DNA of 64,000 bases from an uncultured Candidatus Saccharibacteria bacterium (GTDB lineage: Bacteria; Patescibacteriota; Minisyncoccia; Phycocordibacterales; CAYSCM01), in assembly GCA_964429815.1 (NCBI GenBank), contig CAYSCM010000001.1, positions 256,001-320,000 of the forward strand, in the 5' to 3' direction. Both the position numbers and the translations under genes were made by a program. The notes under the pieces are model-generated. The model saw nothing but the letters and a program-made list of their open reading frames with translations, did no database searches and was not told where the DNA came from. Position 1 is the first letter of the stretch; the number at the start of each line of letters is the position of its first letter. Below, one piece after another: positions 5,449-20,671 of this stretch.

Positions 5449-6090
5449 ATGGTCTTCACGATGGACACTCTCTTTCAGATCATCGTCCTCATTTTTTCCG
5501 TCATTCTCCACGAGGTCTCTCACGGCTATGTCGCGGAGCTCTACGGCGACCCGACCGCGCGGCTCCAGGGGCGCCTTACGCTAAATCCTCTGCGGCACAT
5601 CGACCCATTCGGCTCCGTCATACTTCCCGCACTCCTCGTGCTCTCCGGCTCGCGCGTCCTCATCGGCTGGGCCAAGCCAGTGCCCTACAACCCATACAAC
5701 CTCAAAGGCCGCTTCGCCGAGACCATGGTCGCGCTCGCCGGAGTATTCACAAACCTACTCATTGCCGTCCTTTTCGGCCTCCTCATCCGCTTTGCGGGAG
5801 CGATGATGTCGCCGGCATTTCTCTCGCTCATCAGCACCGTCGTTTACATAAATCTCGTGCTCGCTCTCTTCAATCTCGTGCCTATTCCGCCGCTCGATGG
5901 CTCGCGCGCACTCATTTCTCTCCTGCCGTACCGCCTTCTCGAAACATATCGCCGCTTCGAGGGCGCCATCGCGAGTTTCGGCCTTATCGCCTCGTTTCTT
6001 TTTCTCTTTCTCGTCATTCAGCTTATCTGGCCATTTTTCTCAACGCTCATCCAGTACCTCTTCGTGCTCATTACGGGTGTTTCGCTTTGA
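5449..6090 (+). CDS. site-2 protease family (peptidase M50) membrane metalloprotease
   Basis: HEVSHGYVAELYGD HExxH motif in TM helix, multiple TM segments. Confidence 0.75.
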   Translation: MVFTMDTLFQIIVLIFSVILHEVSHGYVAELYGDPTARLQGRLTLNPLRHIDPFGSVILPALLVLSGSRVLIGWAKPVPYNPYNLKGRFAETMVALAGVFTNLLIAVLFGLLIRFAGAMMSPAFLSLISTVVYINLVLALFNLVPIPPLDGSRALISLLPYRLLETYRRFEGAIASFGLIASFLFLFLVIQLIWPFFSTLIQYLFVLITGVSL

Positions 6091-6170
6091 AATGAAGGCG
6101 CGATTTGCGCCCCGGAGCTCTCTATAGTAGAGTGGCCATGCGCAAAAGGCGCGTTTTTGTTTTAGAAAAA

Positions 6171-6581
6171 ATGTCCACAATAAACCAGCTCGTGAAGCGA
6201 AAGCGCAAGGACGCGAAGCGCAAAACCAAGACGCTCGCTCTTACCTATGGCTTCAACACGCTTGAGAACCGCCCGAGCAATTTTAAGTCGCCCTTCAAGC
6301 GCGGTGTGTGCACGAAAGTCACCACCAAGACCCCTCGCAAGCCTAACTCTGCTATTCGCAAGATCGCCCGCGTTCGCCTCACCAACGGCACCGAAATCAC
6401 CGCCTACATTCCCGGTATGGGGCACACCCTCCAAGAGCATTCGGTAGTGCTTGTGCGTGGAGGTCGCGTAAAGGACGTTGGTCTTCGCTACCAGATTGTG
6501 CGTGGTAAGTACGATGCTACGGGTGTCGATACGCGCCGCCAGGGCCGCTCTCGCTACGGTAACAAGCGACCTAAGGGTTAA
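6171..6581 (+). CDS. rpsL: 30S ribosomal protein S12
   Basis: [13 protein letters not shown]...PKKPNSA..RGGRVKDLPGVRY pattern; start trimmed to conserved N-terminus. Confidence 0.95.
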
Positions 6582-6647
6582 AAATCAGGATATGAATAAT
6601 CTAGCTATAGCAAAGTTATTCATACGCCAACATCGACAAAGATAATC

Positions 6648-7112
6648 ATGAGAAGGAAAGTTAAGAAGCGAAATATTCCCGGACCGGATCTTGTCTATCA
6701 AAATCCGAAGGTTCACAAGCTCATCAACTACGTGATGAAGGAGGGGAAGAAGAACGCTGCACGCAAAATCGTGTACGGCGCGTTCGATATCATCAAAAAA
6801 GATCATGGCGATCCGGTCGAAGTCCTTGAGCTCGCGCTCAAAAACGTCGGCCCGACTATGGAGGTTCGCTCTCGCCGCGTCGGCGGTGCCAACTACCAGG
6901 TGCCGCGCGAAGTGCGCCCGGAGCGCCGACTCGCTCTCTCCTACCGCTGGCTCCTCGACGCTGCAAATGGCAAGAAGGGAAAGCCTATGGCCGTAAAACT
7001 TGCTGACGAAATTCTCTCTGCTTCGAAAAACGAGGGTTCAGCCGTGAAAAAGCGCGAAGATACGCACAAGATGGCGGAATCTAACCGCGCCTTTGCTCAC
7101 TTTGCGTGGTGA
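6648..7112 (+). CDS. rpsG: 30S ribosomal protein S7
   Basis: conserved S7 sequence (KEGKKNAARKIVYGAF..., ANYQVPREVRPERR). Confidence 0.95.
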   Translation: MRRKVKKRNIPGPDLVYQNPKVHKLINYVMKEGKKNAARKIVYGAFDIIKKDHGDPVEVLELALKNVGPTMEVRSRRVGGANYQVPREVRPERRLALSYRWLLDAANGKKGKPMAVKLADEILSASKNEGSAVKKREDTHKMAESNRAFAHFAW

Positions 7113-7143
7113 TTTTCGAGTAAAGCGAAGAAAATTCTAGTTG

Positions 7144-7177
7144 CAAATTGGAGCATCCCGCTCCAATTTTGTTTTTC
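7144..7177 (+). terminator. rho-independent terminator after rpsG
   Basis: 10-bp stem AAATTGGAGC/GCTCCAATTT then tgtttttct. Confidence 0.7.
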
Positions 7178-7365
7178 TGTAGAAGCCAAGGGACACAGTA
7201 CTACGATAGTATCGCAGTATCTCGCAAGGCGCGTGCGCAGGTAGCGTTTATCTCCTGGGCGAAGCGCCTTGCGTCTAAATAACCTCGCAAAATTGGGGTC
7301 GAGGCGCCCACTTCGCCTAGTAAAAATCGCTCAGAAACGAGCAGTTTTTACTTGAAGGCGAAAAT

Positions 7366-7395
7366 ATTGACAATTATAAAACTCCAATTTATAAT
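7366..7395 (+). promoter_or_regulatory. consensus sigma70 promoter (TTGACA-18-TATAAT)
   Basis: TTGACA at 7366-7371, TATAAT at 7390-7395. Confidence 0.6.
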
Positions 7396-7432
7396 GATCC
7401 TAGTGGAATGAGTTCCAACTTTGGAGGAGAAT

Positions 7433-7873
7433 ATGTCCGAGATCTCGCTGATCTGGGTGCTCAGGCTCATCGGTCTCACCACCCTTCTGGGGCTCATTGC
7501 CTTACCGACGGGGATCCATTTTGTTAGACTTTTTATTTACCGACTCGAAAAGAGATGCAGCGTGCGGTTGGAAGCGGCCTCGGCATCACTCTATTTACTT
7601 AGAGAAAGTTTTCGACCCCTGCTCTATATCCCAACTGCGCTAGGGTATCTGCTGTGGATCGCATCGTTTCTTTCGGTGGTTGGGACGACGCCTCTCTTCG
7701 TTCTTTATCTTTTTAAGTCAGACTACCCAATCGCTAGCGCCATCGAGGCCGCTGCCGTATTGGCTGCCTACATAATCGGCTGGCGACTTGGGTCAAGCCT
7801 TCATTTTCTCCAGCTAAAAAAGCTGAATGACGAAGCGCTCCTCGACCTGTATCCCCCGAGTTATGATTATTAG
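7433..7873 (+). CDS. hypothetical small membrane protein inserted between rpsG and fusA
   Basis: GGAGGAG RBS 3 nt upstream of ATG; 3-4 TM segments; own promoter and terminator. Confidence 0.6.
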   Translation: MSEISLIWVLRLIGLTTLLGLIALPTGIHFVRLFIYRLEKRCSVRLEAASASLYLLRESFRPLLYIPTALGYLLWIASFLSVVGTTPLFVLYLFKSDYPIASAIEAAAVLAAYIIGWRLGSSLHFLQLKKLNDEALLDLYPPSYDY

Positions 7874-7885
7874 TACTTTGACGTA

Positions 7886-7915
7886 GAGGACCCGCAACGC
7901 GGGTCCTCTTTTTGC
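7886..7915 (+). terminator. rho-independent terminator
   Basis: GAGGACCCGC..GCGGGTCCTC stem followed by ttttt. Confidence 0.75.
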
Positions 7916-7970
7916 AAATTTTCCGCTTTGGAGTATTCTACACATCACGCCACTGGCGCTTATTTTATTT

Positions 7971-10118
7971 ATGAACCGGGACTATCCACTGGAGCGAGTA
8001 CGAAACTTCGGCATCATCGCGCACATCGATGCGGGGAAGACCACCACGTCCGAGCGCGTCCTTTTTTATACCGGCTCCCAGCACAAAATCGGGGAGGTGC
8101 ACGAAGGTGAGACCACGACCGACTGGATGGAGCAGGAGCGCGAGCGCGGCATTACCATTACCGCGGCCGCCATCACTTGCTTCTGGAGCAGGACTGATGA
8201 GGTGGACAAGAATAACAAAGAAAAGAAAACGCGCTTCAACATCATCGACACCCCGGGACACATCGACTTCACCGTCGAAGTGAAGCGCTCGCTTCGCGTG
8301 CTCGACGGGGCCGTCGTCGTTTTCGACGGTGTTGCAGGGGTCGAGCCACAATCCGAAACTAACTGGCGCTACGCGGATGAGGCTTCGGTGCCGCGCATCT
8401 GTTTCATCAACAAACTCGATCGCATGGGCGCCTCCTTTGAGCGCTCCTATCAGTCAATTCTCGACCGCCTCAACAAGAGGGCGGTACGCATGCAGCTCCC
8501 GATCGGGGCAGAGGAAAACTTCTCGGGTGTTGTCGATCTTCTCAAGATGAAAGCGTATCGCTTCGAAGGAAAAATGGGTGAGACCGTCATCGAGATGGAG
8601 ATCCCGGCAGAGCTGATGGATGAGGTTAAGAAGTATCGCGCCGAGCTCATCGAGCGCATCGTTGAAAACGACGATGATGCCATGAATGCCTACCTCGAGG
8701 GCACGGAGCCGTCGATCGATGAGCTCAAGAAAATCCTCCGTAAAGCCGTCATCGCCAATAACATTTTCCCCGTCTACACCGGAAGCGCGCTCAAGAACAA
8801 AGGCGTACAGCTCGTTCTCGACGCCGTCGTCGACTACCTTCCGTCCCCTATCGACCTCCCGCCGGTTAGGGGTACTGACCCAAAGACGGGCGAGGCCATC
8901 GAGCGCAAGCCCTCCGATGCGGATCCGTTCTGTGCGCTCGCCTTTAAGCTCCAGACTGACCCCTTCGTCGGAGCGCTCACGTTCTTCCGCGTCTACTCAG
9001 GCACGGTGGAGGCGGGCTCCTATATCTACAACTCCACGACCAGTACCAAGGAGCGCCTTGGCCGCATCGTGCGCCTTCAAGCGGACAAGCGCGAAGAGGT
9101 GAAGAAGGTGTTTGCCGGTGAAATTGCCGCCGCGGTCGGCCTTAAGGACACAAAGACCTCCCACACGCTATGCGACGAGAGTAAGCCCATCGTGCTCGAG
9201 CAGATCAAATTCCCCGAGCCGGTCATTTCGATGCGCATCGAGCCGAAGACCAAGCAGGACCAGGAAAAAATGGGCATGGCGCTCAAGAAGCTCTCCGATG
9301 AAGATCCGACGTTTAAGGTCTCCGCTGATTCCGAAACTATGGAAACGCTCATCTCGGGCATGGGTGAGCTTCACCTTGAAATTATCGTCGACCGCATGAA
9401 GCGTGAGTTTGGTGTCGAGGCAAACGTCGGCAAACCGCAAGTCGCGTATCGCGAAACTATCCAGAAAGAGGCGGATGCGGAAGGCAAGTACATCAAGCAA
9501 ACCGGCGGTCGCGGCCAGTACGGACACGTACGTATTAAGATCCAACCGCTCCAGCCGATCGATCCAGAGGCGAAGGTCAAGAAAAATGTTTCGCGCGAAG
9601 ATCACTTCGAATTCGTCAACAACATCAAGGGCGGTGTCATTCCGCAGGAGTACATCCCCGCGGTCGAGAAGGGTATCAAGGAAGCGATGGAGCGCGGCAT
9701 CGTCGCGGGCTTCCGCATGGTGGATATTTCTGTCGAGCTCTATGACGGCTCCTATCACGATGTCGACTCCTCGGAAATCGCCTTTAAGATCGCTGGTTCC
9801 ATGGCATTCCAGGATGCCGCCAAGAACGCTCACCCTGTCCTTCTCGAGCCGATTATGAAAGTGGAAGTTGTCGTTCCGGAGAAATTCGTCGGCGACATCA
9901 CCGGCTCTATCAACGGCAAGCGCGGGCAGATCGAGGGTATGGAAGAGCGAGGTATGGCTCGCGCCGTGCGCGCCAAGGTGCCGCTCTCTGAAATGTTCGG
10001 CTATACGACCGCACTCCGCTCCATGACGGAAGGACGCGCTTCCTTCACCATGGAATTTGATCACTACGAAGTGGTACCGCCAAACGTCGCAAAAGAAATT
10101 ACTGAATCTCGCAAGTAG
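7971..10118 (+). CDS. fusA: elongation factor G
   Basis: [10 protein letters not shown]1 motif, full-length EF-G homology. Confidence 0.95.
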
Positions 10119-10120
10119 CA

Positions 10121-10146
10121 AAACCCGCTCTCTGGCGGGTTTTGCG
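10121..10146 (+). terminator. rho-independent terminator after fusA
   Basis: AACCCGC-tctctg-GCGGGTT then ttgcg. Confidence 0.6.
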
Positions 10147-10177
10147 CTAGTTTGTAAGAAGCACAGAGGAGTACCTC

Positions 10178-10351
10178 ATGAGTACGCAAAAAGCTAACCC
10201 CGATCCGTTCATCGAGGGCCATCTCCGTGATCGCTACGAGCGCGGCGAGCGGCCGGACTTTCGCGAGCCGCGAAATCCTCTGCCAAAGGTGCGTCCCGGT
10301 GCCTCGATGGAGGTCGTGCCGAGCTTTATCGCCGGACGTAAAAAGAAGTAG
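10178..10351 (+). CDS. small hypothetical protein (57 aa, basic)
   Basis: GAGGAG RBS 6 nt upstream; followed immediately by strong terminator; below ORF-track length cutoff. Confidence 0.45.
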   Translation: MSTQKANPDPFIEGHLRDRYERGERPDFREPRNPLPKVRPGASMEVVPSFIAGRKKK

Positions 10352-10352
10352 C

Positions 10353-10388
10353 GTGCGGGCCGCCCCTAGGCGGCCCGCGATTTATTTG
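10353..10388 (+). terminator. rho-independent terminator
   Basis: GCGGGCCGCC-cctag-GCGGCCCGC then gatttatttg. Confidence 0.7.
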
Positions 10389-10434
10389 CAATACTGCGGT
10401 TAACAACGTTCTTTCATAAACAGAGGAGAGAGTC

Positions 10435-10953
10435 ATGCTGGACACGTTCGGCCGCTCGATCATGGCCCTTTCGAACTCGTCCTCCAGTGGTTACTGGGCC
10501 AGCTGTCGCAGGTGGGAAGGCGTCATTGCCTTCCTCGTCATCATCGATGAAGAAAAGAAAAAGACGGCGGACGTACTGCTCCATCCGCACGACATCGAGC
10601 CTGTGCTCTATTTCTCTCTTACGGTCCCGGGCGTTCGTATCACGGAAAAGAACCGCGAGTCCGTAGGGAAGCTCGCTAGGATGGTCAACGCGCGCTTGCC
10701 GTACATCTCGATAAGCCCGGAGACGGGCGATGGCACGCTCTTCTGCTATTACGTATGGCGCTACCCCCGCATCATCGACGCCAAAGAATTCCGCGATAAC
10801 GTCGAGGAAATCACCGAAGATTTCGGTGAGGTCATGCGAACATTCCACCGCTATTTCCTCTGGCTCGTGCGCGGGAAAATAAGCCTCGAGGATCTGGAGA
10901 AGCTTCTCACTGAGCGCTTCCCCCTTGAGGGAGGCCCCCCGAGGCTCTCCTGA
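10435..10953 (+). CDS. hypothetical protein (YbjN-like fold suspected)
   Basis: GAGGAGAGAG RBS upstream of ATG 10435; protein-like composition; preferred over GC-rich antisense ORF 10414..11007. Confidence 0.5.
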   Translation: MLDTFGRSIMALSNSSSSGYWASCRRWEGVIAFLVIIDEEKKKTADVLLHPHDIEPVLYFSLTVPGVRITEKNRESVGKLARMVNARLPYISISPETGDGTLFCYYVWRYPRIIDAKEFRDNVEEITEDFGEVMRTFHRYFLWLVRGKISLEDLEKLLTERFPLEGGPPRLS

Positions 10954-10967
10954 AATCAAGACGCTCC

Positions 10968-11005
10968 CCGCGCGGCCCCTTGCGGCCGCGCGGTTTCTCT
11001 TTTTC
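10968..11005 (+). terminator. rho-independent terminator
   Basis: CCGCGCGGCC-cctt-GGCCGCGCGG then tttctctttttc. Confidence 0.75.
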
Positions 11006-11011
11006 ATTCAG

Positions 11012-11040
11012 TTGACTATTTTTAGAAGCCCCTCTACAAT
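11012..11040 (+). promoter_or_regulatory. sigma70 promoter for tuf (TTGACT-17-TACAAT)
   Basis: TTGACT 11012-11017, TACAAT 11035-11040; followed by ~160-nt leader. Confidence 0.6.
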
Positions 11041-11201
11041 TCCCCCTACGCAAGAGTGCGTTCTTTTTGTTTACCCCGGTGCACGGCCGAGGGTCACAGA
11101 GAGGCGCGCCAGGCAGATTAATAGAAGCCAAGTCTTCTTGGGTCAGGCGTCTCTCGCGCACTTACTCAAGACAGGGTTGGAAAAATTATAAACACATACA
11201 A

Positions 11202-12398
11202 ATGGCAACATTTGACCGTTCGAAGCCGCACGTCAACGTGGGCACCATCGGCCACGTCGACCACGGCAAAACGACGCTCACCGCCGGCATCCTCCATGTT
11301 CTCAACATGGCAGGAGGTGGCTACGGTGCACGCGCCGAAGCTGTCGATCAGATCGACAACGCTCCGGAAGAGAAGGCTCGTGGTATCACCATCGCCCTTC
11401 ATCACTCCGAGTACTGGACGCCTGCGCGCCACTATGCGCACATCGACGCTCCGGGCCACGCTGACTACATCAAAAACATGATCACGGGTGCCGCCCAGAT
11501 GGACGGCGCAGTGCTCGTCGTTGCAGCGACCGACGGTGTCATGCCGCAGACGCGCGAACACATCCTTCTCGCTCGCCAAGTCGGCGTGCCGAAGATCGTC
11601 GTCTTCCTCAACAAGGTAGACATGGTTCCGGATAAAGACCTCATCGACCTCGTCGAAGAGGAAGTCCGCGAGCTCCTTACCAAGAACAACTTCGATGGAG
11701 CTAATGCTCCGGTCATCCGCGGCTCGGGCCTCAAGGCGCTCGAATCGAAGGATATGAACGACGAGTACGCACAGAAGGTGCTCGAACTCGCCAAGGCACT
11801 GGATGAATACATCCCGACACCGGTTCGCGAGACGGACAAGCCGTTCCTCATGCCGATCGAAGACATCTTCTCGATCGAAGGGCGCGGTACTGTCGTCACG
11901 GGCCGCATCGAGCGCGGCAAGGTGAAAGTTGGCGAAGACGTCGAAATCGTCGGTATCAAGCCGACGGCCAAGACGACCGTGACCGGCATCGAAATGTTCA
12001 ACAAGCAGCTCGATGAGGGTCTCGCCGGCGACAACGCAGGCATCCTCCTTCGCGGCACGAAGAAAGAAGATGTACACCGCGGCCAGGTCATTTGTAAGCC
12101 AGGCTCGGTCACTCCTCACACGGAGTTTGAGTCAGAGGTCTACATCCTCAACAAGGATGAGGGCGGTCGCCACACGCCGTTCTTCACCGGCTACAAGCCG
12201 CAATTCTACGTCCGCACGACCGACGTCACCGGCGAGGTCACCCTCGCACAGGGCGTTGAAATGGTCATGCCGGGCGATACCGTTACCTTCAAAGTGAAAC
12301 TCACCGCTCCGGTAGCGCTTGAGGAAAAGCAGCGCTTCGCTATCCGCGAAGGCGGCAAGACCGTCGGCGCCGGCGTCGTCACCAAGATCGTCGCCTAA
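11202..12398 (+). CDS. tuf: elongation factor Tu
   Basis: [26 protein letters not shown]...; start trimmed from longer ORF to conserved N-terminus. Confidence 0.95.
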
Positions 12399-12427
12399 CC
12401 GCCTCTTACCTCTTCTGATTTCCGACC

Positions 12428-12805
12428 ATGGCAAGCGAAACCACCAAAAAACCCCGCGCACCTCGCACCAAAAAGGCCACTAAGGCCCCCGAGGCGCCGA
12501 TTCAGAAGCTTCGCATACGGGTGCGCGCCTACGAACACAAGCTTCTCGACGCGTCCGTAAAGCAGATCATCGACACGGCAATACGCTTCGACGCGACGGT
12601 CGTGGGGCCGGTTCCGCTTCCTACGGAAATTAAAAAATATACCGTCAATCGCTCGACCTTCGTCCACAAGAATGCGCGAGAGCAGTTCGAGATGCGGGTC
12701 CACAAACGAATGATGGATATCATGAATCCCAATCCGAAGGTGATCGAGGCACTCACGAACCTCAATCTTCCCTCCGGCGTCAACATCGACGTAAAGATGG
12801 TCTAA
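12428..12805 (+). CDS. rpsJ: 30S ribosomal protein S10 with ~25-aa Lys/Pro/Ala-rich N-terminal extension
   Basis: IRIRVRAYEHKLLDASVKQIIDTA... S10 core. Confidence 0.9.
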   Translation: MASETTKKPRAPRTKKATKAPEAPIQKLRIRVRAYEHKLLDASVKQIIDTAIRFDATVVGPVPLPTEIKKYTVNRSTFVHKNAREQFEMRVHKRMMDIMNPNPKVIEALTNLNLPSGVNIDVKMV

Positions 12806-12823
12806 CAAAAATGCGACCACCCA

Positions 12824-12852
12824 AAAACGCTCCCAATCAGGGCGTTTTTTGG
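12824..12852 (+). terminator. rho-independent terminator after rpsJ
   Basis: AACGC(T)CCC..GGGCGTT then tttttt. Confidence 0.65.
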
Positions 12853-12865
12853 TGTTACCGGCACA

Positions 12866-12894
12866 TTGACAAAATGGCCTAATTCGTGCTATAA
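12866..12894 (+). promoter_or_regulatory. consensus sigma70 promoter (TTGACA-17-TATAAT)
   Basis: TTGACA 12866-12871, TATAAT 12889-12894. Confidence 0.65.
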
Positions 12895-12962
12895 TGTGTG
12901 CAGTATTGAACATCCTGCACTGCAGGCCTGCACCTCAAGGTTTAGGGGTAGGAGTAACTCCG

Positions 12963-13352
12963 ATGACGACCGCCGAAATCAGGATCAGTGGCAAGCGCCC
13001 CCCGAACACTCATGGCATCATGCACCTCTATATTGAGGGACAGGCCAAGCCCATCTACATCTGGACGCCTGAGGAGATCGACTGGCTCTGCGGCCATGCC
13101 GTTCACCGGCTAGACCACGCGTATGACGCTTATCTAAGGGATCTGTCCTGTCCGGAATCGATCGAGAATCCCGAGCTTCGCGAAGCAGTCCGTGTCTGCC
13201 AGAAAGAGCGAGCGGAGAAGGTGCCCCACGAAAAACGCACCTGGCTCCTTCTCTCGCCGAGAAAGATTCGCTATTCGGCGTGGGCGGGGACGCTCGTCCT
13301 TGTCTCGAACCGTGCCCGCATCGAGGAGCTCCTCCAGCTCGCGGCGGCCTAA
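12963..13352 (+). CDS. hypothetical protein (129 aa)
   Basis: AGGAGT RBS 7 nt upstream; own promoter and terminator; inserted between rpsJ and rplC. Confidence 0.55.
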   Translation: MTTAEIRISGKRPPNTHGIMHLYIEGQAKPIYIWTPEEIDWLCGHAVHRLDHAYDAYLRDLSCPESIENPELREAVRVCQKERAEKVPHEKRTWLLLSPRKIRYSAWAGTLVLVSNRARIEELLQLAAA

Positions 13353-13373
13353 GCCCACACGCGCGAACCTATT

Positions 13374-13410
13374 CCGCCCGGAAGTCTCGAACCTCCGGGC
13401 GGTTTTCTTT
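13374..13410 (+). terminator. rho-independent terminator
   Basis: CCGCCCGGA..TCCGGGCGG then ttttctttt. Confidence 0.75.
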
Positions 13411-13438
13411 TGACTTTTTATTTTTTTGTGATATTATT
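13410..13438 (+). promoter_or_regulatory. sigma70 promoter (TTGACT-17-TATTAT)
   Basis: TTGACT 13410-13415, TATTAT 13433-13438. Confidence 0.5.
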
Positions 13439-13482
13439 TTGGAGGCGTCTAGAACCCCCTCAGCACAACTAGGAGTAAGAAT

Positions 13483-13926
13483 ATGAGAAACTCGACCTTC
13501 GGGAAACTCCGCCTCCTGCCTTGGGAGACACGATACACGCCGTTCTCATACTTCATCCGAAATGAAAGAAAAAAGAGAAACGTGTCGCTCAGGGCCTTCT
13601 ATAAATTTCTTGTTGACAGGCACGGAGGACCAATTGTCGGGGTCGATAATTCTCTAATCAGCAGATGGGAAACAGCAAATGCGGAACCGTCCGCTGATGC
13701 AGTGCAAGTTCTTGCAATTATTCTCGAAGTTCCACTGCAGGCGCTAGCATCTCTCATTCCGAGCGCGTGGTCGTTACTACTAATCGAGGTAGCGGATATC
13801 GTGCACATCCTCGCGGAAAGAAAATCCCAGGAGAACATGACGATTGGAGAGATGGTCCGTATGTTGCAGGACCATATTCGCCACAAATACTGGGATGAAA
13901 GCAACGATAGGATTTCACTCAAGTAA
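13483..13926 (+). CDS. XRE-family helix-turn-helix protein
   Basis: AGGAGT RBS; SLISRWETANAEPSADAVQVLAIILEV matches HTH_3 (Cro/C1) motif. Confidence 0.55.
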   Translation: MRNSTFGKLRLLPWETRYTPFSYFIRNERKKRNVSLRAFYKFLVDRHGGPIVGVDNSLISRWETANAEPSADAVQVLAIILEVPLQALASLIPSAWSLLLIEVADIVHILAERKSQENMTIGEMVRMLQDHIRHKYWDESNDRISLK

Positions 13927-13941
13927 CAGATTTTCACCCTT

Positions 13942-13982
13942 CCGCCCGGCAGTCTCGCGACTGCCGGGCGTTTTCTTTTTTA
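13942..13982 (+). terminator. rho-independent terminator
   Basis: CGCCCGGCAGTC-tcgc-GACTGCCGGGCG then ttttctttttt. Confidence 0.8.
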
Positions 13983-14112
13983 TTTGCATATTTTTAGAGG
14001 TTCCTGTAGTGTGTCCCCATTCGCTACGTTCTCTAGGGAATACCCGGTGGGAACCAATGGCAAGAAGGCTCTAAGAGCCCGGCGCCATTGTTGGCGTTTT
14101 TTTGTTTCAACC

Positions 14113-14748
14113 ATGAAATTCATCGTCGGATTCAAACAGCATATGACGCAGATCTTCGACGAAGCTGGCACGGTGCAGCCGGTTACCGTGCTTTCCGCTA
14201 CTCCTAACGTCGTGACTGCCATCAAGAGCAAAGAAAAGGATGGCTATATTGCGGTGCAGGTGGGTGCGGGGGAGCGCAAGGAAAAAAATATTTCAAAAGC
14301 CGTTAAGGGGCACGTGAAAGGCCACGGCAATTTTTCGGTACTTAAAGAGTTCCGCCCCGAAAATGTCGGCGACGAAGGTGAAGTCTCCAAAATGACACCA
14401 GGCACCGCGCTTGCGGTTGATGTGTTCGCTCCGGGCGACAAGGTGGTCGTCTCGGCAATTTCAAAAGGCAAAGGGTTCCAGGGTGTTGTGAAGCGCCACG
14501 GTTTCAAGGGAGATTCTCGCACGCACGGCCGCAAGCACTCCGAGCGCGCACCAGGTTCCATCGGCGGCGGAGGCCGCGCAGGAGGCCGTGTGGTGAAAGG
14601 TATGCGCATGGCAGGCCGCATGGGGTCTGATCGCATTACGGTAAAAAACCTCAAGGTGGTTGCTATCAATAAAGAAGCTGGAGAAATTCTTATTTCGGGA
14701 GCCGTTCCGGGTCGTCGGGGAACGGTCGTTGAAGTGCGCGGCATGTAA
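14113..14748 (+). CDS. rplC: 50S ribosomal protein L3
   Basis: MKFIVGFKQHMTQIFDEAGTVQPVTVL... L3; start trimmed. Confidence 0.95.
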   Translation: MKFIVGFKQHMTQIFDEAGTVQPVTVLSATPNVVTAIKSKEKDGYIAVQVGAGERKEKNISKAVKGHVKGHGNFSVLKEFRPENVGDEGEVSKMTPGTALAVDVFAPGDKVVVSAISKGKGFQGVVKRHGFKGDSRTHGRKHSERAPGSIGGGGRAGGRVVKGMRMAGRMGSDRITVKNLKVVAINKEAGEILISGAVPGRRGTVVEVRGM

Positions 14749-14753
14749 ACACT

Positions 14754-15416
14754 ATGGCTGAAGTAACTATCTACAATCAGAAGGGTGAATCGGCGGGGAA
14801 GGTAAAACTTCCGGGCTTCTTCGAGACGAAGTGGAAGGCGGATGTCGTCCACCAGGTGGTCGTCGCGGAAGCGGCAAACGCTCGTGTGTCTATCGCCAAC
14901 ACCAAGGATAGAAGCGATGTGCGCGGTGGCGGCCGCAAGCCGTGGCAGCAGAAGGGTACCGGCCGAGCTCGTCACGGATCTTCTCGCTCGCCGATCTGGC
15001 GCGGAGGCGGTTCCACCTTTGGTCCGCAGAAAGAAAAGGACTACTCGCAAAAAATCAATAAGTCGATGCGCCGCAGGGCTCTCGCTATGGCACTCTCCCG
15101 CAAGGCCGCCGATGGGGAAGTGATCTTTGTCGATAAGCTCGTCTTTGCAAAGCCTTCAGCTAAAGAGGCTAAGGCAACACTCCTCGCGCTCGGCAAAAAC
15201 AAGGACTTCTCCTCGCTCAAGGATCGCCGCAACAACGCCGCTCTCATCGCGCTTTCCGAAAATGATAAAGAAGCTAAGAAGAGTTTCCGCAATTTCGGCA
15301 ATGTACTGATCGAGGAGGCACGCAACATCACCGCATCCGAGATCCTCGGCAAGAAGTACCTCATCATCGAAAATCCAACCGCGACCCTTCCGCGCTGGGA
15401 AAAAATTCTTAACTAA
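14754..15416 (+). CDS. rplD: 50S ribosomal protein L4
   Basis: RGGGRKPWQQKGTGRARHGS... L4 signature. Confidence 0.95.
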   Translation: MAEVTIYNQKGESAGKVKLPGFFETKWKADVVHQVVVAEAANARVSIANTKDRSDVRGGGRKPWQQKGTGRARHGSSRSPIWRGGGSTFGPQKEKDYSQKINKSMRRRALAMALSRKAADGEVIFVDKLVFAKPSAKEAKATLLALGKNKDFSSLKDRRNNAALIALSENDKEAKKSFRNFGNVLIEEARNITASEILGKKYLIIENPTATLPRWEKILN

Positions 15417-15421
15417 CCACC

Positions 15422-15838
15422 ATGGCTCTCTTCAATTTTGGAAAAAAGAAAAAGGACGCTCCGAATCTTCCTAAGAAGGCGACCCAGGCCGTGGCCGCAC
15501 CGGCGAAAGACGTAAAGATTCCGAAGGCAGCAAAAGTCTCGGGGGAGGGAGCGGGACGCTACGCGCACGTGCTTCTTCGCCCGCGCATCACGGAAAAAGC
15601 GACCGATGTCACCTCAAATAGCGTCTACGTTTTTGAAATCGATCCGCGAAGCGACAAGCGTGCCGTGCGTGAGGCGGTCAAAACCCAGTACAAGGTAAAT
15701 CCGGTGAAGATTAACATCGTGAAGCTTCCCGCTAAGCGTGTCGAGTCAAAACTTCGCGGCGGATTTCCGGGCGCGACTGCCGCGACGAAGAAGGCCTACG
15801 TCTACCTTCCTAAAGGAACCACTATTGAACTTGCATAA
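15422..15838 (+). CDS. rplW: 50S ribosomal protein L23 with ~45-aa N-terminal extension
   Basis: C-terminal L23 core (RPRITEKAT...VFEIDPRSDKRAVREAV). Confidence 0.85.
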   Translation: MALFNFGKKKKDAPNLPKKATQAVAAPAKDVKIPKAAKVSGEGAGRYAHVLLRPRITEKATDVTSNSVYVFEIDPRSDKRAVREAVKTQYKVNPVKINIVKLPAKRVESKLRGGFPGATAATKKAYVYLPKGTTIELA

Positions 15839-15843
15839 CTATC

Positions 15844-16686
15844 ATGAAAAGCCATAACCCCACTTCAAAAGGCCGCCGTCAGCTTGTCTCGATCGAGTAC
15901 GGCAAATACCTCACCGCAAACGAGCCGTGGAAAGGACTCGTCTCGGGCGGCAAGCGCCGCGTCGGGCGCAACGCGTTCGGCCGTATCACGACTCGCCACA
16001 AGGGCGGCGGCCACAAGCGCCTCTTCCGCGATGTCGACTTCATGCTCACCAAGTTCGATATCCCGGCGCGCGTCGAGACTATTGAATACGACCCGAACCG
16101 CACGGCCTTTATCGCCCGCATCGTCTATCGCGATGGCGAGCGCCGCTACGTGCTCGCGAGCAAATCCATGCGTGTGGGCAATGAACTCCTCATTTCGGAG
16201 AAAGCCCCGGTGAAGCTTGGCAACCGCATGCCGCTTCGCAACATGCCGGTCGGCACTTTTGTCTACAATGTCGAGATTCAGCCGAAGGGGGGCGCCAAAC
16301 TCATCCGCTCGGCAGGGAACACTGCGGAAATCGTCGCGCAAGATGGTGACTACACAAACCTCAAGATGCCTAGTACCGAAGTGCGTCGCGTGCTCTCGGG
16401 GGCGTGGGCGACGATCGGTGAAGTATCCAACGATGAGAACAAGCTCCGCTCACTCGGAAAGGCCGGACGCTCCCGCTGGCTCGGCATTCGCCCGACCGTG
16501 CGCGGCTCCGTCATGAACCCGGTTGATCACCCACACGGCGGCGGCGAGGGTCGCCAGGGACGTGGTCGCCGACGCGCCATCTCCATCTACGGCAAACCGA
16601 CCGGCAAGGGCCAGAAGAGCCGCCGACCGAAGAAGTACAGCAACGGCATGATTCTCTCCCGACGTCGTGTCGGAAAAAACCGCTAA
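15844..16686 (+). CDS. rplB: 50S ribosomal protein L2
   Basis: full-length L2 (GRNAFGRITTRHKGGGHKR..., PHGGGEGR). Confidence 0.95.
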   Translation: MKSHNPTSKGRRQLVSIEYGKYLTANEPWKGLVSGGKRRVGRNAFGRITTRHKGGGHKRLFRDVDFMLTKFDIPARVETIEYDPNRTAFIARIVYRDGERRYVLASKSMRVGNELLISEKAPVKLGNRMPLRNMPVGTFVYNVEIQPKGGAKLIRSAGNTAEIVAQDGDYTNLKMPSTEVRRVLSGAWATIGEVSNDENKLRSLGKAGRSRWLGIRPTVRGSVMNPVDHPHGGGEGRQGRGRRRAISIYGKPTGKGQKSRRPKKYSNGMILSRRRVGKNR

Positions 16687-16694
16687 AACTGATG

Positions 16695-16730
16695 AAAAAC
16701 GCCGCGACTTCCGTCGCGGCGTTCGTGTTC
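16695..16730. terminator. hairpin terminator between convergent rplB and minus-strand gene
   Basis: AACGCCGCGAC-ttcc-GTCGCGGCGTT; T-run on minus side. Confidence 0.65.
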
Positions 16731-17391
16731 ACCAGTACGCAAAGGGATCGCGCCAGTCTGGGTAGTTATCATGGAGCCATCGGTATATTGGAGGATGCAG
16801 TTGCGGAAGTCTAGCTGCACGGCGTTTACTGTCTCTCGCCGCGTCTTCCTCAAGAAGGCGTGTATCTTCATCGGTTATTCCGTCGAACTTTCTTTCCTTC
16901 CGTTTTTCGACGTGCACAATGCCAATAAACTCGGCTGGTTTCTCTGGCTCAACAAAGGTACGGTCGATTACCACGTCGATGATATAGCCTCTTGGCCGTT
17001 CGATGGGAGCGGTGTGAATGTTGGGCGGATTCAAAGCGTAGCGACAATAGACTTGAGCGCTCTCTAAACCAAGTCGATCGTCGCTGAATTCCCGGTGTAT
17101 ATGTACCCGGAGATTCCCTTTCCTATCGAGAACATGAAGAATTCCAGAATCAGGCCTTCCGTAGGCATCGTATCCTTCGACCGCTCTCCAACCGGATGGG
17201 AGCACTACATCGAATCTCACATAATTTGGTGGCGGATTAGCCAACTCGTTAAAGAGTTGTCCATTGAGATCAAATGCTCTCAGCACCTGGAAACCTCCTC
17301 GTTGGAGCGTTTCGCGCATTCCCTTCAGTCCCTGCCAAGGGAATTCTGCATTTTCAAGAGTAAACCAGGGGAGTACTACGGTACCAGACAT
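16729..17391 (-). CDS. hypothetical protein (220 aa), antisense insertion within r-protein cluster
   Basis: AAGGAG RBS upstream of ATG at 17391; no recognisable family. Confidence 0.55.
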   Translation of the reverse strand: MSGTVVLPWFTLENAEFPWQGLKGMRETLQRGGFQVLRAFDLNGQLFNELANPPPNYVRFDVVLPSGWRAVEGYDAYGRPDSGILHVLDRKGNLRVHIHREFSDDRLGLESAQVYCRYALNPPNIHTAPIERPRGYIIDVVIDRTFVEPEKPAEFIGIVHVEKRKERKFDGITDEDTRLLEEDAARDSKRRAARLPQLHPPIYRWLHDNYPDWRDPFAYW

Positions 17392-17468
17392 GTAATCTCC
17401 TTTTGTTTGTGGATCAGTCCTGAGGTGACATTAAATTTAAACAGCGCTTTTTGCAATAAAAGAAATTC

Positions 17469-17494
17469 ACCCCGCACTTCTTTGTGCGGGGTGA
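17469..17494 (-). terminator. rho-independent terminator
   Basis: CACCCCGCAC..TGCGGGGTG; minus-strand T-run follows. Confidence 0.7.
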
Positions 17495-17499
17495 GTTCG

Positions 17500-17847
17500 T
17501 CATCCGGTCTCGGACGGCACGCTGTTTTCGAGCTGTGAGCCGACCAGAACGAACGAATTAACGAAGATGATGAGAATACCCGCGAGAATGCTAAGAAACC
17601 ACAGCGGGCTCGAGAGGAGTATAATGAAGAGCGTGTAGAGTAGGGTCGCCGTGACGGAAAGCGATGAAAGCCAGGCACTTTCCTCGTCCCAATCCCACTC
17701 CCACTTCACGAAGCTTTCAGCGACCAGATACAGGACGAGGGCCGGCCCGCCAAAGAAAAAGAGGAAAAATCTCGCCCCATCGATCGCCTGAGTCATCATG
17801 GCGTCGAGGGTCATCAGCACGTGCGCCATCGTCCACGGTTTCGTCAT
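17500..17847 (-). CDS. hypothetical membrane protein (115 aa)
   Basis: AAGGGAGA RBS upstream of internal ATG 17847; 3 TM segments. Confidence 0.5.
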   Translation of the reverse strand: MTKPWTMAHVLMTLDAMMTQAIDGARFFLFFFGGPALVLYLVAESFVKWEWDWDEESAWLSSLSVTATLLYTLFIILLSSPLWFLSILAGILIIFVNSFVLVGSQLENSVPSETG

Positions 17848-17937
17848 AGGTTCTCCCTTCACGGTCTCTTGCGGAACTGTAGATCTTCTTGGGATTTTTG
17901 CAAGAATTTGCAAGAATATGAGGGATCCGAAAGAAAA

Positions 17938-17973
17938 ACGCCGCGATCTGATGCATCGCGGCGGGGACCAAAA
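17938..17973 (-). terminator. rho-independent terminator
   Basis: CGCCGCGAT-ctgatgc-ATCGCGGCG; minus-strand tttttctttc follows. Confidence 0.7.
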
Positions 17974-17975
17974 AT

Positions 17976-18224
17976 TCAGGCAGCGTCCTTTTCGCCGGGG
18001 AATAGAGGGTCGCTAAGCCTGTACTTAGTGATTCCGTCGCGGCGGTAGAGCGTGCCGGGTGCGTAGCCATGGCCTCGCTTCAGGCAGTAGGCCGCGACGT
18101 AGGCCCTCGCTTCCCCTTCGCTCTCGGCCGAAAAGTACTCGAGTTTTTTCTCTGCACTTCGAGCTCCCGAGACGGGATTTCGGAAAAATTTTACGTAGTT
18201 GAACTCGAACTCCTGTCGGGGCAT
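17976..18224 (-). CDS. hypothetical small protein (82 aa)
   Basis: AAGGAG RBS 6 nt upstream of ATG at 18224 (MPRQEFEFNYVKF...). Confidence 0.5.
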   Translation of the reverse strand: MPRQEFEFNYVKFFRNPVSGARSAEKKLEYFSAESEGEARAYVAAYCLKRGHGYAPGTLYRRDGITKYRLSDPLFPGEKDAA

Positions 18225-18289
18225 GGAAGGCTCCTTCAGTTGCGCTCCGGCCACTCTAGACCCGTTCTGTCTCCCTCGCAAGCCTCCGT

Positions 18290-18318
18290 TTGACAGTGCG
18301 GGCTCGCGCGAGTAGTAT
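18290..18318 (+). promoter_or_regulatory. sigma70 promoter for rpsS block (TTGACA-17-TAGTAT)
   Basis: TTGACA 18290-18295, TAGTAT 18313-18318. Confidence 0.55.
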
Positions 18319-18358
18319 GTTGCCACAAGCTCTTCAGCGAGCTTTTTTGATTGAAATT

Positions 18359-18706
18359 ATGAGCCGATCGCTCAAAAAGGGACCCTACGTCGACGAGAAA
18401 CTCCTCAAGAAAATCGAGGGGAAGAAGCCCCAGTCAACCGGGGTTATTAAAACGTGGGCTCGCCGCTCCGTCATCGCTCCTACCATGGTCGGCTTCATCT
18501 TTGGCGTCTACAACGGCAAGCAGCACATCGACGTGCTGGTGACCGAGGAAATGGTAGGGCATCGCCTGGGGGAGTTCTCGCCGACCAAGAAGTTCACCCG
18601 CCATGGCGGCAAGATGCAGAAGGAGCTTGAAATTAAGAAGAAGGAGGCTGAAATTGCCGCCGCGCAGGCCGCAAAGACCGCTGCCGCGGATGCTGGCAAG
18701 AAATAA
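18359..18706 (+). CDS. rpsS: 30S ribosomal protein S19 with ~45-aa Lys/Ala-rich C-terminal extension
   Basis: [20 protein letters not shown]...[17 protein letters not shown]19 core. Confidence 0.9.
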
Positions 18707-18707
18707 T

Positions 18708-19076
18708 ATGAAAGCCTCTCTCAAAAACTATCGACAGGCTCCGCGAAAGGTGCGCCTCGTGACCGACATGGTGAAAGGGAAGAAAGTTCCTGAAGCTCTC
18801 GTTGCGCTCACCCATCTCCCCAAGCGTGCCGCGCTTCCCATGAAAAAACTCATCGAGTCGGCAAGCAGGAATGCCGAGAATCTCGGCATGAAGCGCGAAA
18901 ATCTTTTCATCAAAGATATTCGAGTCGACAAAGGGATCGTCTTCAAGCGCATCATGCCGCGCGCGCGTGGCCGCGGAGCCCTCATCCGTCGTGAGTCGAG
19001 CCACATTTCTCTTTCTCTTGCTGAAGGTAACCCGCCGAAGAAGGGTCGCAACGCCCCTAAAGCGGTCGCCGCATAA
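18708..19076 (+). CDS. rplV: 50S ribosomal protein L22
   Basis: MKASLKNYRQAPRKVRLVTDMVKGKKV... L22. Confidence 0.9.
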   Translation: MKASLKNYRQAPRKVRLVTDMVKGKKVPEALVALTHLPKRAALPMKKLIESASRNAENLGMKRENLFIKDIRVDKGIVFKRIMPRARGRGALIRRESSHISLSLAEGNPPKKGRNAPKAVAA

Positions 19077-19081
19077 ACACC

Positions 19082-19771
19082 ATGACGCACACCGTACATC
19101 CCTACGCACACCGACTTGGAATACTGCGCGACTGGAAAAGCCGTTGGATAACTTCTGATCCCAAGCGCTTCCGGGAATTTGTGAAATGTGATACGACTAT
19201 TCGCGAGTTCCTCACCAAGCGCTTGCGCGGCCTCTATGTCGCCGGCGTCGACATTGAGCGCAACAATAAAGTGCTTCGCGTCATCATAAAGACTTCCCGC
19301 CCCGGCATGCTCATTGGTCGCTCCGGAGAGGGGGCTGTTAAGCTCAAGGCCGAACTGGAAAAGCTCATCGCCAAGCTCGGGCTCTCCGATCCGGTGCAGC
19401 TCAAGCTCGATATCGAAGAGGTTCGCAATCCGGAAGGCAACGCCGCCATCGTAGCCTACATGGTCGCCGAGGGTCTCGAGAAACGCCTCACGTTCCGGCG
19501 CGTTCTTAAGATGACGGTCGAAAAGGTGATGGCAAACCGCGATGTCATCGGGGTGCGCATCGCCATCGCGGGGCGACTCGGCGGGGCCGACATGAGCCGT
19601 GCGGAGGAGATCAAGCGTGGTCGCATTCCGCTCCAGACACTGCGTGCCGACATTGATTTTGCCCGTGAGAAGGCGTACCTTCCCTACGGCGTTATAGGCG
19701 TCAAAGTCTGGATCTATAAGGGCGAAGTATTCGCCGACCGCAAGGGTAGTGCGCCGAAAACCGCTAAATAA
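19082..19771 (+). CDS. rpsC: 30S ribosomal protein S3
   Basis: full-length S3 with KH domain. Confidence 0.95.
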   Translation: MTHTVHPYAHRLGILRDWKSRWITSDPKRFREFVKCDTTIREFLTKRLRGLYVAGVDIERNNKVLRVIIKTSRPGMLIGRSGEGAVKLKAELEKLIAKLGLSDPVQLKLDIEEVRNPEGNAAIVAYMVAEGLEKRLTFRRVLKMTVEKVMANRDVIGVRIAIAGRLGGADMSRAEEIKRGRIPLQTLRADIDFAREKAYLPYGVIGVKVWIYKGEVFADRKGSAPKTAK

Positions 19772-19776
19772 TCACC

Positions 19777-20196
19777 ATGCTCTTTCCGAAAAAAGTAAAG
19801 CATCGCAAGTGGCAGACCGGACGCTGGAACCCCAAGCGCCTTACCCCCGACACGCGCGGCATTACCGTGGCGTTCGGTTCTTTTGGCCTTCGCGCGATGA
19901 CGCATGCTCGTGTCACGAGCAACCAGATCGAGGCCGGTCGCAAAGCGATATCGCGCCAACTGGGGAAGACCGGCAAGAGCTGGATACGAATTTTCCCCGA
20001 TCGACCGTTTACCAAGAAGCCGCCGGAAGTGAAGCTCGGGAAGGGAAAGGGCGACCCGCAGGGGTACGTCTTTGAGGTGCTCCCCGGGCGCATTCTCTTT
20101 GAGATAGACGGTGTTCCCGAGAGCGTGGCTCACGTAGCCCTGCGCAAGGCAGGCGCCAAACTTCCGGTGCGCACGAAGGTCGTTGCCCGAACATAA
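19777..20196 (+). CDS. rplP: 50S ribosomal protein L16
   Basis: MLFPKKVKHRKWQTGR... L16. Confidence 0.95.
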   Translation: MLFPKKVKHRKWQTGRWNPKRLTPDTRGITVAFGSFGLRAMTHARVTSNQIEAGRKAISRQLGKTGKSWIRIFPDRPFTKKPPEVKLGKGKGDPQGYVFEVLPGRILFEIDGVPESVAHVALRKAGAKLPVRTKVVART

Positions 20197-20198
20197 TC

Positions 20199-20387
20199 AT
20201 GGCTACAAACGATTTCAAACATACACCAGAGACGGAACTTCGGAATCTCGCCAACGACAAGCGGGAAGCTCTTCGCGCGTTCCGCTTCGGGGTTGCCGGC
20301 AGCAAGACCCGCAACATCCGCGAGGGGCGCAACCTCAAGCGCGACATTGCCCGCATCGAAACCGAGCTTAACGCTCGAAAGAAATAA
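20199..20387 (+). CDS. rpmC: 50S ribosomal protein L29
   Basis: 62-aa L29-like (ELRNLANDKREALRAFRF). Confidence 0.85.
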   Translation: MATNDFKHTPETELRNLANDKREALRAFRFGVAGSKTRNIREGRNLKRDIARIETELNARKK

Positions 20388-20388
20388 T

Positions 20389-20667: not shown

Positions 20668-20671
20668 TATC

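Follow-up and report, generated by a model that had tools for sequence, protein, structure and literature searches.

In the 64,000-nucleotide stretch of DNA analyzed here (hereafter the window; contig CAYSCM010000001.1 of assembly GCA_964429815.1, positions 256,001 to 320,000, from an uncultured bacterium labeled Candidatus Saccharibacteria), the str-S10-spc supercluster of ribosomal protein genes is opened at five internal junctions that hold non-ribosomal genes. We conclude that these junctions are probably old, lineage-wide permissive slots between independently transcribed blocks, and that their occupants turn over and are of mixed age. The cluster runs rpsL-rpsG, slot 1, fusA, slot 2, tuf-rpsJ, slot 3, rplC-rplD-rplW-rplB, slot 4, rpsS-rplV-rpsC-rplP-rpmC-rpsQ-rplN-rplX-rplE, slot 5, rpsN-rpsH-rplF-rplR-rpsE-rplO-secY-adk-map; all blocks are collinear and lie 0.9-2.9 kb apart. 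The first four slots are gaps of 858, 1083, 1307, and 1672 bp holding eight small non-ribosomal open reading frames (ORFs), termed insA, insB1, insB2, insC1, insC2, and insD1-3, and the fifth, a gap of 2.9 kb, holds a diversity-generating retroelement (DGR). An earlier reading of this DNA (the sequence-only reading) had described four interruptions. The genes, Shine-Dalgarno (SD) sequences, and terminators that it listed are all present where it placed them, as checked against the ORF list and the sequence; however, its total was too low, the fifth slot lying outside the region it described.

The age of the slot positions was assessed in a survey of 160 related loci (156 distinct), which were anchored on S10 and reached 10 kb to either side of rpsJ; separations larger than 10 kb were thus beyond detection. 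Every junction was measured, and a gap of more than 300 bp was counted as open. The rpsG>fusA junction was open in 18 of 31 loci (median gap, 935 bp), fusA>tuf in 63 of 71 (1810 bp), rpsJ>rplC in 53 of 104 (341 bp), and rplB>rpsS in 45 of 60 (1021 bp), that is, in 51-89% of the related loci measured, whereas the 13 other junctions from rpsL to rplE exceeded 300 bp in 0-5% of loci and had medians of -16 to 40 bp. Further downstream, 52% of 27 loci had an open rplE>rpsN, and none of the six junctions that follow was ever open. The largest gap between anchored genes in relatives was 7.5 kb. Rather than falling at borders between intact operons, the open sites interrupt the classical str, S10, and spc operons from within, and the classical borders themselves are tight: tuf|rpsJ measures 29 nt in the window and has a median of 40 in relatives, 97% of which keep it tight, and rpsQ|rplN measures 4 nt, with a median of -16. 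In a midpoint-rooted neighbor-joining tree of seven concatenated proteins, an early-splitting group has tight rpsJ>rplC and rplB>rpsS junctions, and all four junctions are open, at sizes of 0.3-7 kb, in a large clade to which the window belongs. Because the same junctions are open across the relatives and in the window's own clade, the slot positions are old and shared. Synteny with relatives had been proposed as the check on the insertions, a broadly conserved arrangement being the result that would speak against them; the arrangement turned out to be conserved in its positions and not in its contents.

The contents of the slots are largely unshared. When 486 slot ORFs (60 aa or longer) were clustered, 342 remained singletons at E < 1e-4, and a Pfam search with 148 slot-ORF representatives returned 94 families, nearly all of them met once. 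The genes inserted in the window have no credible relative among the 486 ORFs (phmmer at E < 5, one insignificant hit), and tblastn searches with the relatives' slot genes found no remnants in the window's slots outside the DGR. Homologous slot genes from different genomes occupy the same slot. In 91 of 92 pairs, the slot genes were no more conserved than the core genes: diverged pairs were less conserved than the core (97% core versus 91% slot identity, 85% versus 68%, and 76% versus ~60%, for example), and identical duplicate loci were equal to it. The one exceptional pair involves an artefact-like 411-aa ORF, a size that suggests a candidate second copy of EF-Tu. These comparisons thus give no indication that genes were recently transferred between the sampled genomes. 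As a separate observation, some relatives have single slots filled by two to four paralogs in tandem, Cys-rich proteins whose N terminus carries a hydrophobic segment (L061 5972-11097, L068 7791-13297, and L014 3529-5762), and the same families of these proteins occur in three different slots across genomes.

The anatomy of the window's slots is listed below, with predicted signals; GC3 is the GC content of third codon positions, and the GC content of the window is 56%.

6138-6154: hairpin followed by a U-tract, directly 5' of rpsL
6171-7112, plus strand: block 1, rpsL (probable start 6171) and rpsG (6648-7112), from ORF translations, with Pfam labels from an identical public contig
7145-7179, plus strand: intrinsic terminator after rpsG, 10-bp stem and T-run
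7367-7395, plus strand: insA promoter, perfect TTGACA-17-TATAAT (12/12 match)
7433-7873, plus strand: insA, 146 aa, hydrophobic and membrane-like; SD GGAGG 7 nt upstream; GC3 0.58
7886-7913, plus strand: insA terminator, 9-bp GC stem and T5, read from the sequence
7971-10118, plus strand: block 2, fusA (EF-G), SD-less, with hairpin 7948-7958 and a U-rich tract upstream
10178-10351, plus strand: insB1, 57 aa, basic (isoelectric point [pI] 10.3); SD GAGGAG; terminator 10354-10379; GC3 0.67
10435-10953, plus strand: insB2, 172-aa ORFan; SD GAGGAG; terminator 10968-10993; GC3 0.75
11012-11201, plus strand: tuf promoter TTGACT-17-TACAAT (11012-11040), then a 161-nt structured leader
11202-12805, plus strand: block 3, tuf (11202-12398) and rpsJ (12428-12805)
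12818-12854, plus strand: terminator hairpin after rpsJ, an inverted repeat
12866-12895, plus strand: insC1 promoter, perfect TTGACA-18-TATAAT (12/12 match)
12963-13352, plus strand: insC1, 129-aa ORFan; SD AGGAG; terminator 13374-13402; GC3 0.74
13410-13437, plus strand: insC2 promoter TTGACT-16-TATTAT with TG extension
13483-13926, plus strand: insC2, 147-aa helix-turn-helix protein; SD AGGAG; terminator 13943-13970; GC3 0.55
13984-14112, plus strand: rplC leader, with TTGCAT-17-TAGTGT, GAACCAATGGC (14051-14061), and hairpin 14081-14098 plus U7 abutting the ATG
14113-16686, plus strand: block 4, rplC-rplD-rplW-rplB, 5-nt gaps, SD-less
16694-16725, no strand assigned: hairpin between convergent rplB and insD1
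16729-17391, minus strand: insD1, 220 aa, member of a rare conserved family; SD AAGGAG; GC3 0.47
17500-17847, minus strand: insD2, 115 aa, acidic, two hydrophobic segments; SD GGGAG; terminator 17467-17494
17976-18224, minus strand: insD3, 82 aa, basic (pI 9.1); SD AAGGAG; terminator 17939-17963
18290-18358, plus strand: rpsS promoter TTGACA-17-TAGTAT (18290-18318), then a short leader with hairpin 18327-18344 and a U-tract
18359-21878, plus strand: block 5, rpsS-rplV-rpsC-rplP-rpmC-rpsQ-rplN-rplX-rplE, tightly packed
21879-24734: slot 5, between rplE and rpsN (rpsN starts at 24735), with the DGR
21950-21979: DGR promoter (12/12 match)
22118-22759: DGR target gene, with the variable repeat (VR) at 22648-22757
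23097-23206: DGR template repeat (TR)
23205-23570, minus strand: DGR Avd
23591-24592: DGR reverse transcriptase (RT)

The insA terminator overlaps the -35 element of a promoter-like site for fusA, TTGCAA-16-TATTCT (7912-7939). Between the rpsG terminator and the insA promoter, about 200 nt (7170-7366) have no assignment and end with a hairpin (7319-7352) resembling a bidirectional terminator; this stretch could be a remnant of an earlier occupant.

The inserted genes differ from the native ones in their expression signals. An SD duplex of -6.8 kcal/mol or stronger at proper spacing precedes 9 of 9 inserted genes (the eight plus the DGR target) and 3 of 35 native genes (Fisher p = 3e-7), and each of the eight is bounded by a terminator. 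Perfect promoters of the form TTGACA-N16-18-TATAAT occur three times in the 64 kb, at 7367, 12866, and 21950, where 0.01 would be expected; all three lie directly upstream of inserted genes (insA, insC1, and the DGR target), and strong promoter matches were found for four inserted genes or units, including insA, insC1, and insC2. Terminator-like sites number 42 in the region 6000-25500 (24.8 +/- 5.0 expected) and show no enrichment in the region 25500-45000, with 26 observed and 24.1 expected. In relatives, an SD stands at the homology-defined start of just 1% of 622 ribosomal and elongation factor genes. In the relatives' slots, promoter sites with 11 or more of 12 positions matched are just ~3-fold denser per kb than elsewhere, which is unremarkable for DNA rich in intergenic sequence, and we therefore did not accept consensus-promoter enrichment as a property of those slots.

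The native genes of the window fall into three types. Some start within a few bases of the preceding stop codon. The heads of the ribosomal blocks (rpsL, fusA, rplC, and rpsS) have instead a short GC hairpin and a U-rich tract before the AUG, with no SD (6138-6170, 7948-7970, 14081-14112, and 18327-18358). Elsewhere in the window, many native genes that head a transcription unit have a TATACT or TATAGT box ending 7-10 nt 5' of the ATG, again with no SD, as seen upstream of 30228, 32942, 33917, 39989, 53298, and 56695 and, on the minus strand, 39891; these features suggest that genes of the third type have leaderless or near-leaderless mRNAs. The native genes had been described as leaderless in style. 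That they have no SD is borne out; strict leaderlessness is not, the cluster genes being either presumably translationally coupled or preceded by a short leader with a hairpin and a U-rich tract.

All eight inserted genes show the coding pattern GC1 > GC2 < GC3, and they split by composition. Three of them (insA, insC2, and insD1), together with the DGR Avd and RT, deviate from the host, with GC3 of 0.47-0.59 and negative codon scores, whereas insB1, insB2, insC1, insD2, and insD3 are indistinguishable from the ribosomal genes in codon usage and GC3. The codon-usage comparison suggested by the sequence-only reading thus set apart three of the eight genes and returned five as host-like. Searches with Pfam, PHROGs, NCBIfam, and PADLOC matched no curated family in any insert other than a marginal helix-turn-helix domain in insC2, which had been read as an XRE-type gene: Pfam HTH_3 scores 23.2 bits at a cutoff of 23 (E = 7e-5) and covers residues 52-87 only, and an MqsA-type match reaches 15.9 bits at a cutoff of 61.8. 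A type II toxin-antitoxin pair of insC1 and insC2 was considered and rejected: between the two genes lie a terminator and a promoter, insC1 matches no family, and insC2 has the weak helix-turn-helix match only. The gene between rpsG and fusA, taken for a membrane protein, does have hydrophobic segments, with no family match. For insB2, 5.8 billion proteins yielded no full-length homologue besides insB2 itself, and the sole other hit in an exhaustive HMMER search of 1.84 billion representatives was a repeat match, in which residues 111-156 (10765-10902) resemble an eight-fold repeat in a 4384-aa protein (P0011; E = 7e-11) for which Pfam gives no informative domain. Antisense to insB2 there is a longer ORF. 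For insC1, the 5.8 billion proteins gave a self match only, and a single-sequence AlphaFold2 model was uninformative (predicted local distance difference test score, 43). Scans of IMG/VR with insA, insC1, insC2, and insD1 found no viral relatives. The best-characterized insert is insD1, with seven homologues at 45-50% identity and 41 invariant columns; structure prediction returned no usable fold. Three of the homologues could be located, either beside the gene for the CCA-adding enzyme or between murA and def, and none of the three is in a ribosomal cluster. The insD1 gene has thus changed location during evolution.

Integrases, recombinases, and transposases are absent from the slot ORFs, as searched with the same four resources, and from the rest of the window among the 25 best-represented of 50 families; there is no tRNA target within the cluster. 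On the other hand, insC2 is bracketed by a 56-nt, 75% direct repeat made by two terminators (13372-13427 and 13940-13995), with compensatory changes in the stems, and an exact 14-mer that is unique in the window and common to the insD1 and insD3 terminators (16694-16707 and 17933-17946) brackets insD1-insD2. Around insA there is a 14-nt repeat with two mismatches, which we estimate to be no more than chance would give. Such local duplication of terminators and promoters hints, with low confidence, that illegitimate or duplicative recombination rather than a dedicated recombinase may have been at work. Two other possibilities were tried and rejected. A genome-wide family of terminator repeats does not fit, as similar terminators were found in adjacent cassettes only; nor does an integron cassette array, given that there is no integrase and no shared attC-like repeat, that the genes have their own promoters and rho-independent terminators, and that three of them lie on the opposite strand.

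The element between rplE and rpsN is a complete DGR, with an RT, an Avd, a TR and VR that differ at adenines only, and the VR at the 3' end of the target. The repeat is 110 nt long, and 16 of 16 TR/VR mismatches fall at TR adenines; the VR is the last 110 nt of the target gene, ending at its stop codon, and the TR lies 449 nt downstream. The RT matches RVT_1 (4e-26). Avd is matched by an NCBIfam model at 1.5e-20, although at 73.4 bits this is under the model's 80-bit cutoff, and by a PHROG at 2.8e-21. The target protein has no match in Pfam. The DGRs of the candidate phyla radiation (CPR) have the same parts, with adenine-only differences between TR and VR and the VR at the target's C terminus; the present one differs from them in sitting inside the ribosomal cluster and in its target without a Pfam match. 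Homologues of Avd and RT also occupy other slots in two relatives, namely rpsJ|rplC (L011 2578-4518) and the slot downstream of rplB (L050 8369-9650).

In relatives, two of the blocks begin with conserved leaders. One of ~215 nt lies directly upstream of tuf in 41 loci of a sister clade of Paceibacteria (for example, L025 8530-8743, L085 5236-5452, and L075 8577-8791). Compensatory changes are seen in 15 of 17 pairs of its hairpin. Its 5' segment CCGCACACAG is followed by two copies of CTGTG(C/T)GG, with either of which it might base-pair. The leader is without a match in Rfam and is a candidate for a new cis-regulatory RNA. The other, of ~150 nt, with the core GRACCAATGGGCAC followed by nested hairpins, lies directly upstream of rplC in ~35 loci (for example, L061 11164-11316); only 4 of its 11 predicted pairs covary. 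The rplC leader adjoins slots of 283-7156 bp, and both leaders are kept beside slots of 0.3-7 kb. The window has a leader at each of these places, and an Rfam scan of 7100-18400 found no family. The sequence-only reading had proposed a new promoter and a leader of ~160 nt for tuf; the predicted promoter is there, and the 161-nt leader folds more stably than expected (z = -3.0). The window's rplC leader has the core motif GAACCAATGGC in common with the conserved leader of relatives, and base pairing would be possible between its segment CCAATGGC and the GCCATTG within the 5' arm of the hairpin at 14081-14098, an arrangement that would be attenuator-like. The hairpin and U7 just 5' of rplC may likewise recall leaders of the S10/L4 attenuator type.

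These observations can be brought together as follows. In the window, which comes from a genome of the Paceibacteria (CPR/Patescibacteria), the str-S10-spc supercluster would consist of six separately transcribed blocks: rpsL-rpsG, fusA, tuf-rpsJ, rplC-rplD-rplW-rplB, rpsS to rplE, and rpsN to secY-adk-map. Within a block, genes that lie a few bases apart and have no SD are presumably translationally coupled, and insertions between them would not be tolerated. At a block boundary, the upstream block would terminate and the downstream block would restart from its own promoter and leader, so that extra DNA could be tolerated there without breaking the expression of ribosomal genes. Over time, the slots would gain and lose lineage-specific genes, each arriving as a unit of promoter, SD, ORF, and terminator. 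Among the genes of the window, insB1, insB2, insC1, insD2, and insD3 would be long-resident, fast-diverging orphans with host-like codon usage, and insA, insC2, and insD1 would be more recent arrivals with atypical composition, of which insD1 has demonstrably been relocated.

A different history, close to the sequence-only reading, is that four (or, with the DGR, five) recent and independent horizontal acquisitions of foreign cassettes broke a contiguous cluster in this genome only. Part of this is supported: the units are self-contained and non-ribosomal, their occupants are not conserved, and insD1 has moved. Low GC3 and negative codon scores of insA, insC2, insD1, Avd, and RT agree with recent arrival, as do the homologues of insD1 at unrelated loci, the short direct repeats that bracket insC2 and the insD1-insD2 segment, and the strong SDs and three perfect Escherichia coli-type promoters in DNA whose native genes have neither. 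However, the same junctions are open in most of the 156 relatives and throughout the window's clade, so that the sites are not arbitrary hits specific to one genome; five of the eight genes are compositionally native, and for them a foreign origin is unproven; the slots show no integrase or transposase gene and, beyond local repeats derived from terminators, nothing resembling an att site; the four inserts compared with IMG/VR are without viral relatives; and the slot genes of relatives are inherited in place. Nor is orphan status evidence for foreign origin. Slot genes diverge fast, and at the distance that separates the window from its sampled relatives their homologues would be expected to be undetectable even without transfer. 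We consider recent acquisition rather unlikely as the general explanation. Another possibility is that the slots are a selected platform for exchange or expression, with conserved flanks (fusA, tuf, rpsJ, rplB, and rpsS) serving as anchors for homologous recombination that lets accessory genes pass between diverged Paceibacteria, or with a location favored for high expression. Each slot indeed has one or more of the most conserved genes beside it, the same secreted-protein families sit in three different slots, DGRs are found in three different slots of three genomes, and the window encodes ComEC and type IV pilus genes. On the other hand, the signature of transfer, a slot gene more similar between genomes than its flanking core, was not seen apart from the artefact-like pair, and the junctions around the equally conserved rplN never open. 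Slot ORFs also lack the enrichment in secreted or membrane proteins for which we looked, N-terminal hydrophobic segments being present in 45% of them and in 40% of flanking genes (p = 0.2). Such a platform is improbable in our view. A broader version, in which the slots are a conserved and selected dock for accessory genes across Paceibacteria, where orphans, secreted arrays, and DGRs originate or settle, are highly expressed under their own consensus signals, and may be exchanged via the flanks, while the undescribed tuf and rplC leaders keep the blocks independent, we regard as unlikely.

Two further explanations concern the small ORFs themselves. They could encode lineage-specific factors associated with the ribosome or translation and placed in the cluster for co-regulation. 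Their location agrees with this, as does the basic character of two small proteins, insB1 and insD3; moreover, CPR ribosomes have no uL30 (PMC9297842), and in the window the gene for it is missing, with rpsE followed directly by rplO. However, even relatives do not share the ORFs, promoters and terminators of their own would keep them apart from the ribosomal transcripts, three of them run in the opposite direction, and the homologues of insD1 lie outside ribosomal clusters, which makes this role very unlikely. Finally, the ORFs could be spurious, the slots non-coding spacers, or the contig a chimera. In favor of spurious ORFs, insB2 and insC1 have no full-length homologue anywhere, and insB2 is overlapped by the longer antisense ORF. 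Against them, all eight have a correctly spaced SD and a terminator, all have the codon-position pattern of coding sequence, the insD1 family has its invariant columns, and public gene calls agree. A chimera is contradicted by the assemblies from two runs, which independently reproduce parts of the arrangement. The Logan assembly of SRR12313480 is 100% identical to the window over 12360-22805 (10.4 kb), a contig from SRR12313482 carries rpsG-insA-fusA in the order seen in the window, and a 501-kb NCBI contig carries the same proteins. The arrangement is therefore no assembly artefact, and this last group of explanations is extremely unlikely; being identical, the Logan contig is uninformative on variation within the population. 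For insC1, a second NCBI contig has a variant of 152 aa on record.

Several points weigh against our preferred reading of the junctions as old permissive slots with changing occupants. The survey sample consists of Paceibacteria-like loci alone, which limits the taxonomic range of the pattern, and the genes in the relatives' slots are crude longest-ORF calls. The window's S10 has its best matches, at 70-87% identity, in metagenome-assembled genomes labeled Kaiserbacteria, Paceibacteria, Parcubacteria, and similar; even so, the nearest relatives sampled in GTDB and JGI scans reach a best identity of only ~60% for L3, L4, and L2, and with none closer the history of the window's particular occupants is not traceable. 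Acquisition from a compositionally similar donor would look the same as long residence. The promoters, terminators, and block boundaries of the window are predictions. Canonical promoters and strong SDs had been attributed to all inserts, and whereas the SDs hold for all eight, a search for a strong promoter match at insB1, insB2, and insD1-3 found none. Profiles of the relatives' leaders (nhmmer for rplC) did not detect the tuf and rplC leaders of the window, the homology of which is thus unproven.

Outside the cluster, two stretches of the window (37000-39000 and 47000-51000) have a low GC content of 0.44-0.49, compared with ~0.57 elsewhere, and may be further accessory regions; the first holds a gene for an AAA_28 ATPase (38028-38564) that adjoins tmRNA and smpB. 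A tRNA-Ile with the anticodon UAU, an uncommon bacterial means of reading AUA, is encoded at 42733-42806.

Invasions of the ribosomal operon cluster by other genes have been described, such as bfd-bfr between str and S10 and tusDCB between rpoBC and str (Brandis 2019, PMC6735719; Brandis 2021, PMC8046335). Among 115 rearrangements, 65% separate operons from one another without disrupting the operons themselves, and gene insertions account for 67% (PMC8046335). The slots appear to be the same kind of event: non-ribosomal genes lie inside the translation cluster, they are tolerated at borders of transcription units, and there is no signature of long-distance horizontal gene transfer. As in an insertion into the cluster, less than 10 kb of non-cluster genes separates adjacent cluster genes in the window. 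The flanking units there have not gone on to a separation of more than 10 kb. The slots differ in position, recurrence, collinearity, and turnover. The insertions described by Brandis are sporadic, often followed by full separation, and mostly placed between classical operons, whereas in the window and its relatives the same five sites are used across the class, the blocks stay collinear while their contents turn over, and it is the interior of the str, S10, and spc operons that is opened, with the classical borders tight. A full-text search of the literature found no description of a recurrent slot pattern in CPR.

The slots can also be compared with the hotspots of bacterial pangenomes, where accessory genes of variable content occupy fixed, core-flanked positions, many without recognizable mobile-element genes. 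Such hotspots are usually defined among strains or species, whereas the slots span a class-level lineage and show no transfer signature, and hotspots are not known to lie inside a ribosomal protein cluster. In archaea, the S10 gene follows EF-1alpha at the end of a str-like operon, and L3 starts the next operon. The window and its relatives share with this arrangement the joint tuf-rpsJ and the unit boundary before rplC; in contrast, the organism is a bacterium, there are additional boundaries at rpsG|fusA, fusA|tuf, rplB|rpsS, and rplE|rpsN, and the boundaries hold accessory genes.

The str-S10-spc gene order is a textbook case of frozen gene order across bacteria and underlies the marker sets with which uncultivated lineages are placed and binned. 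In metagenome assemblies, slots of the kind described here can break up ribosomal scaffolds or mislead their annotation. At the same time, they are fixed and easily located sites at which lineage-specific genes of unculturable organisms can be sampled, and they adjoin two candidate regulatory RNAs, one before tuf and one before rplC. The borders of the classical E. coli operons are not universal. A cluster that stays collinear and yet is opened at the same five internal points reveals which links between its genes are truly constrained, and what constrains them is probably translational coupling inside the blocks.

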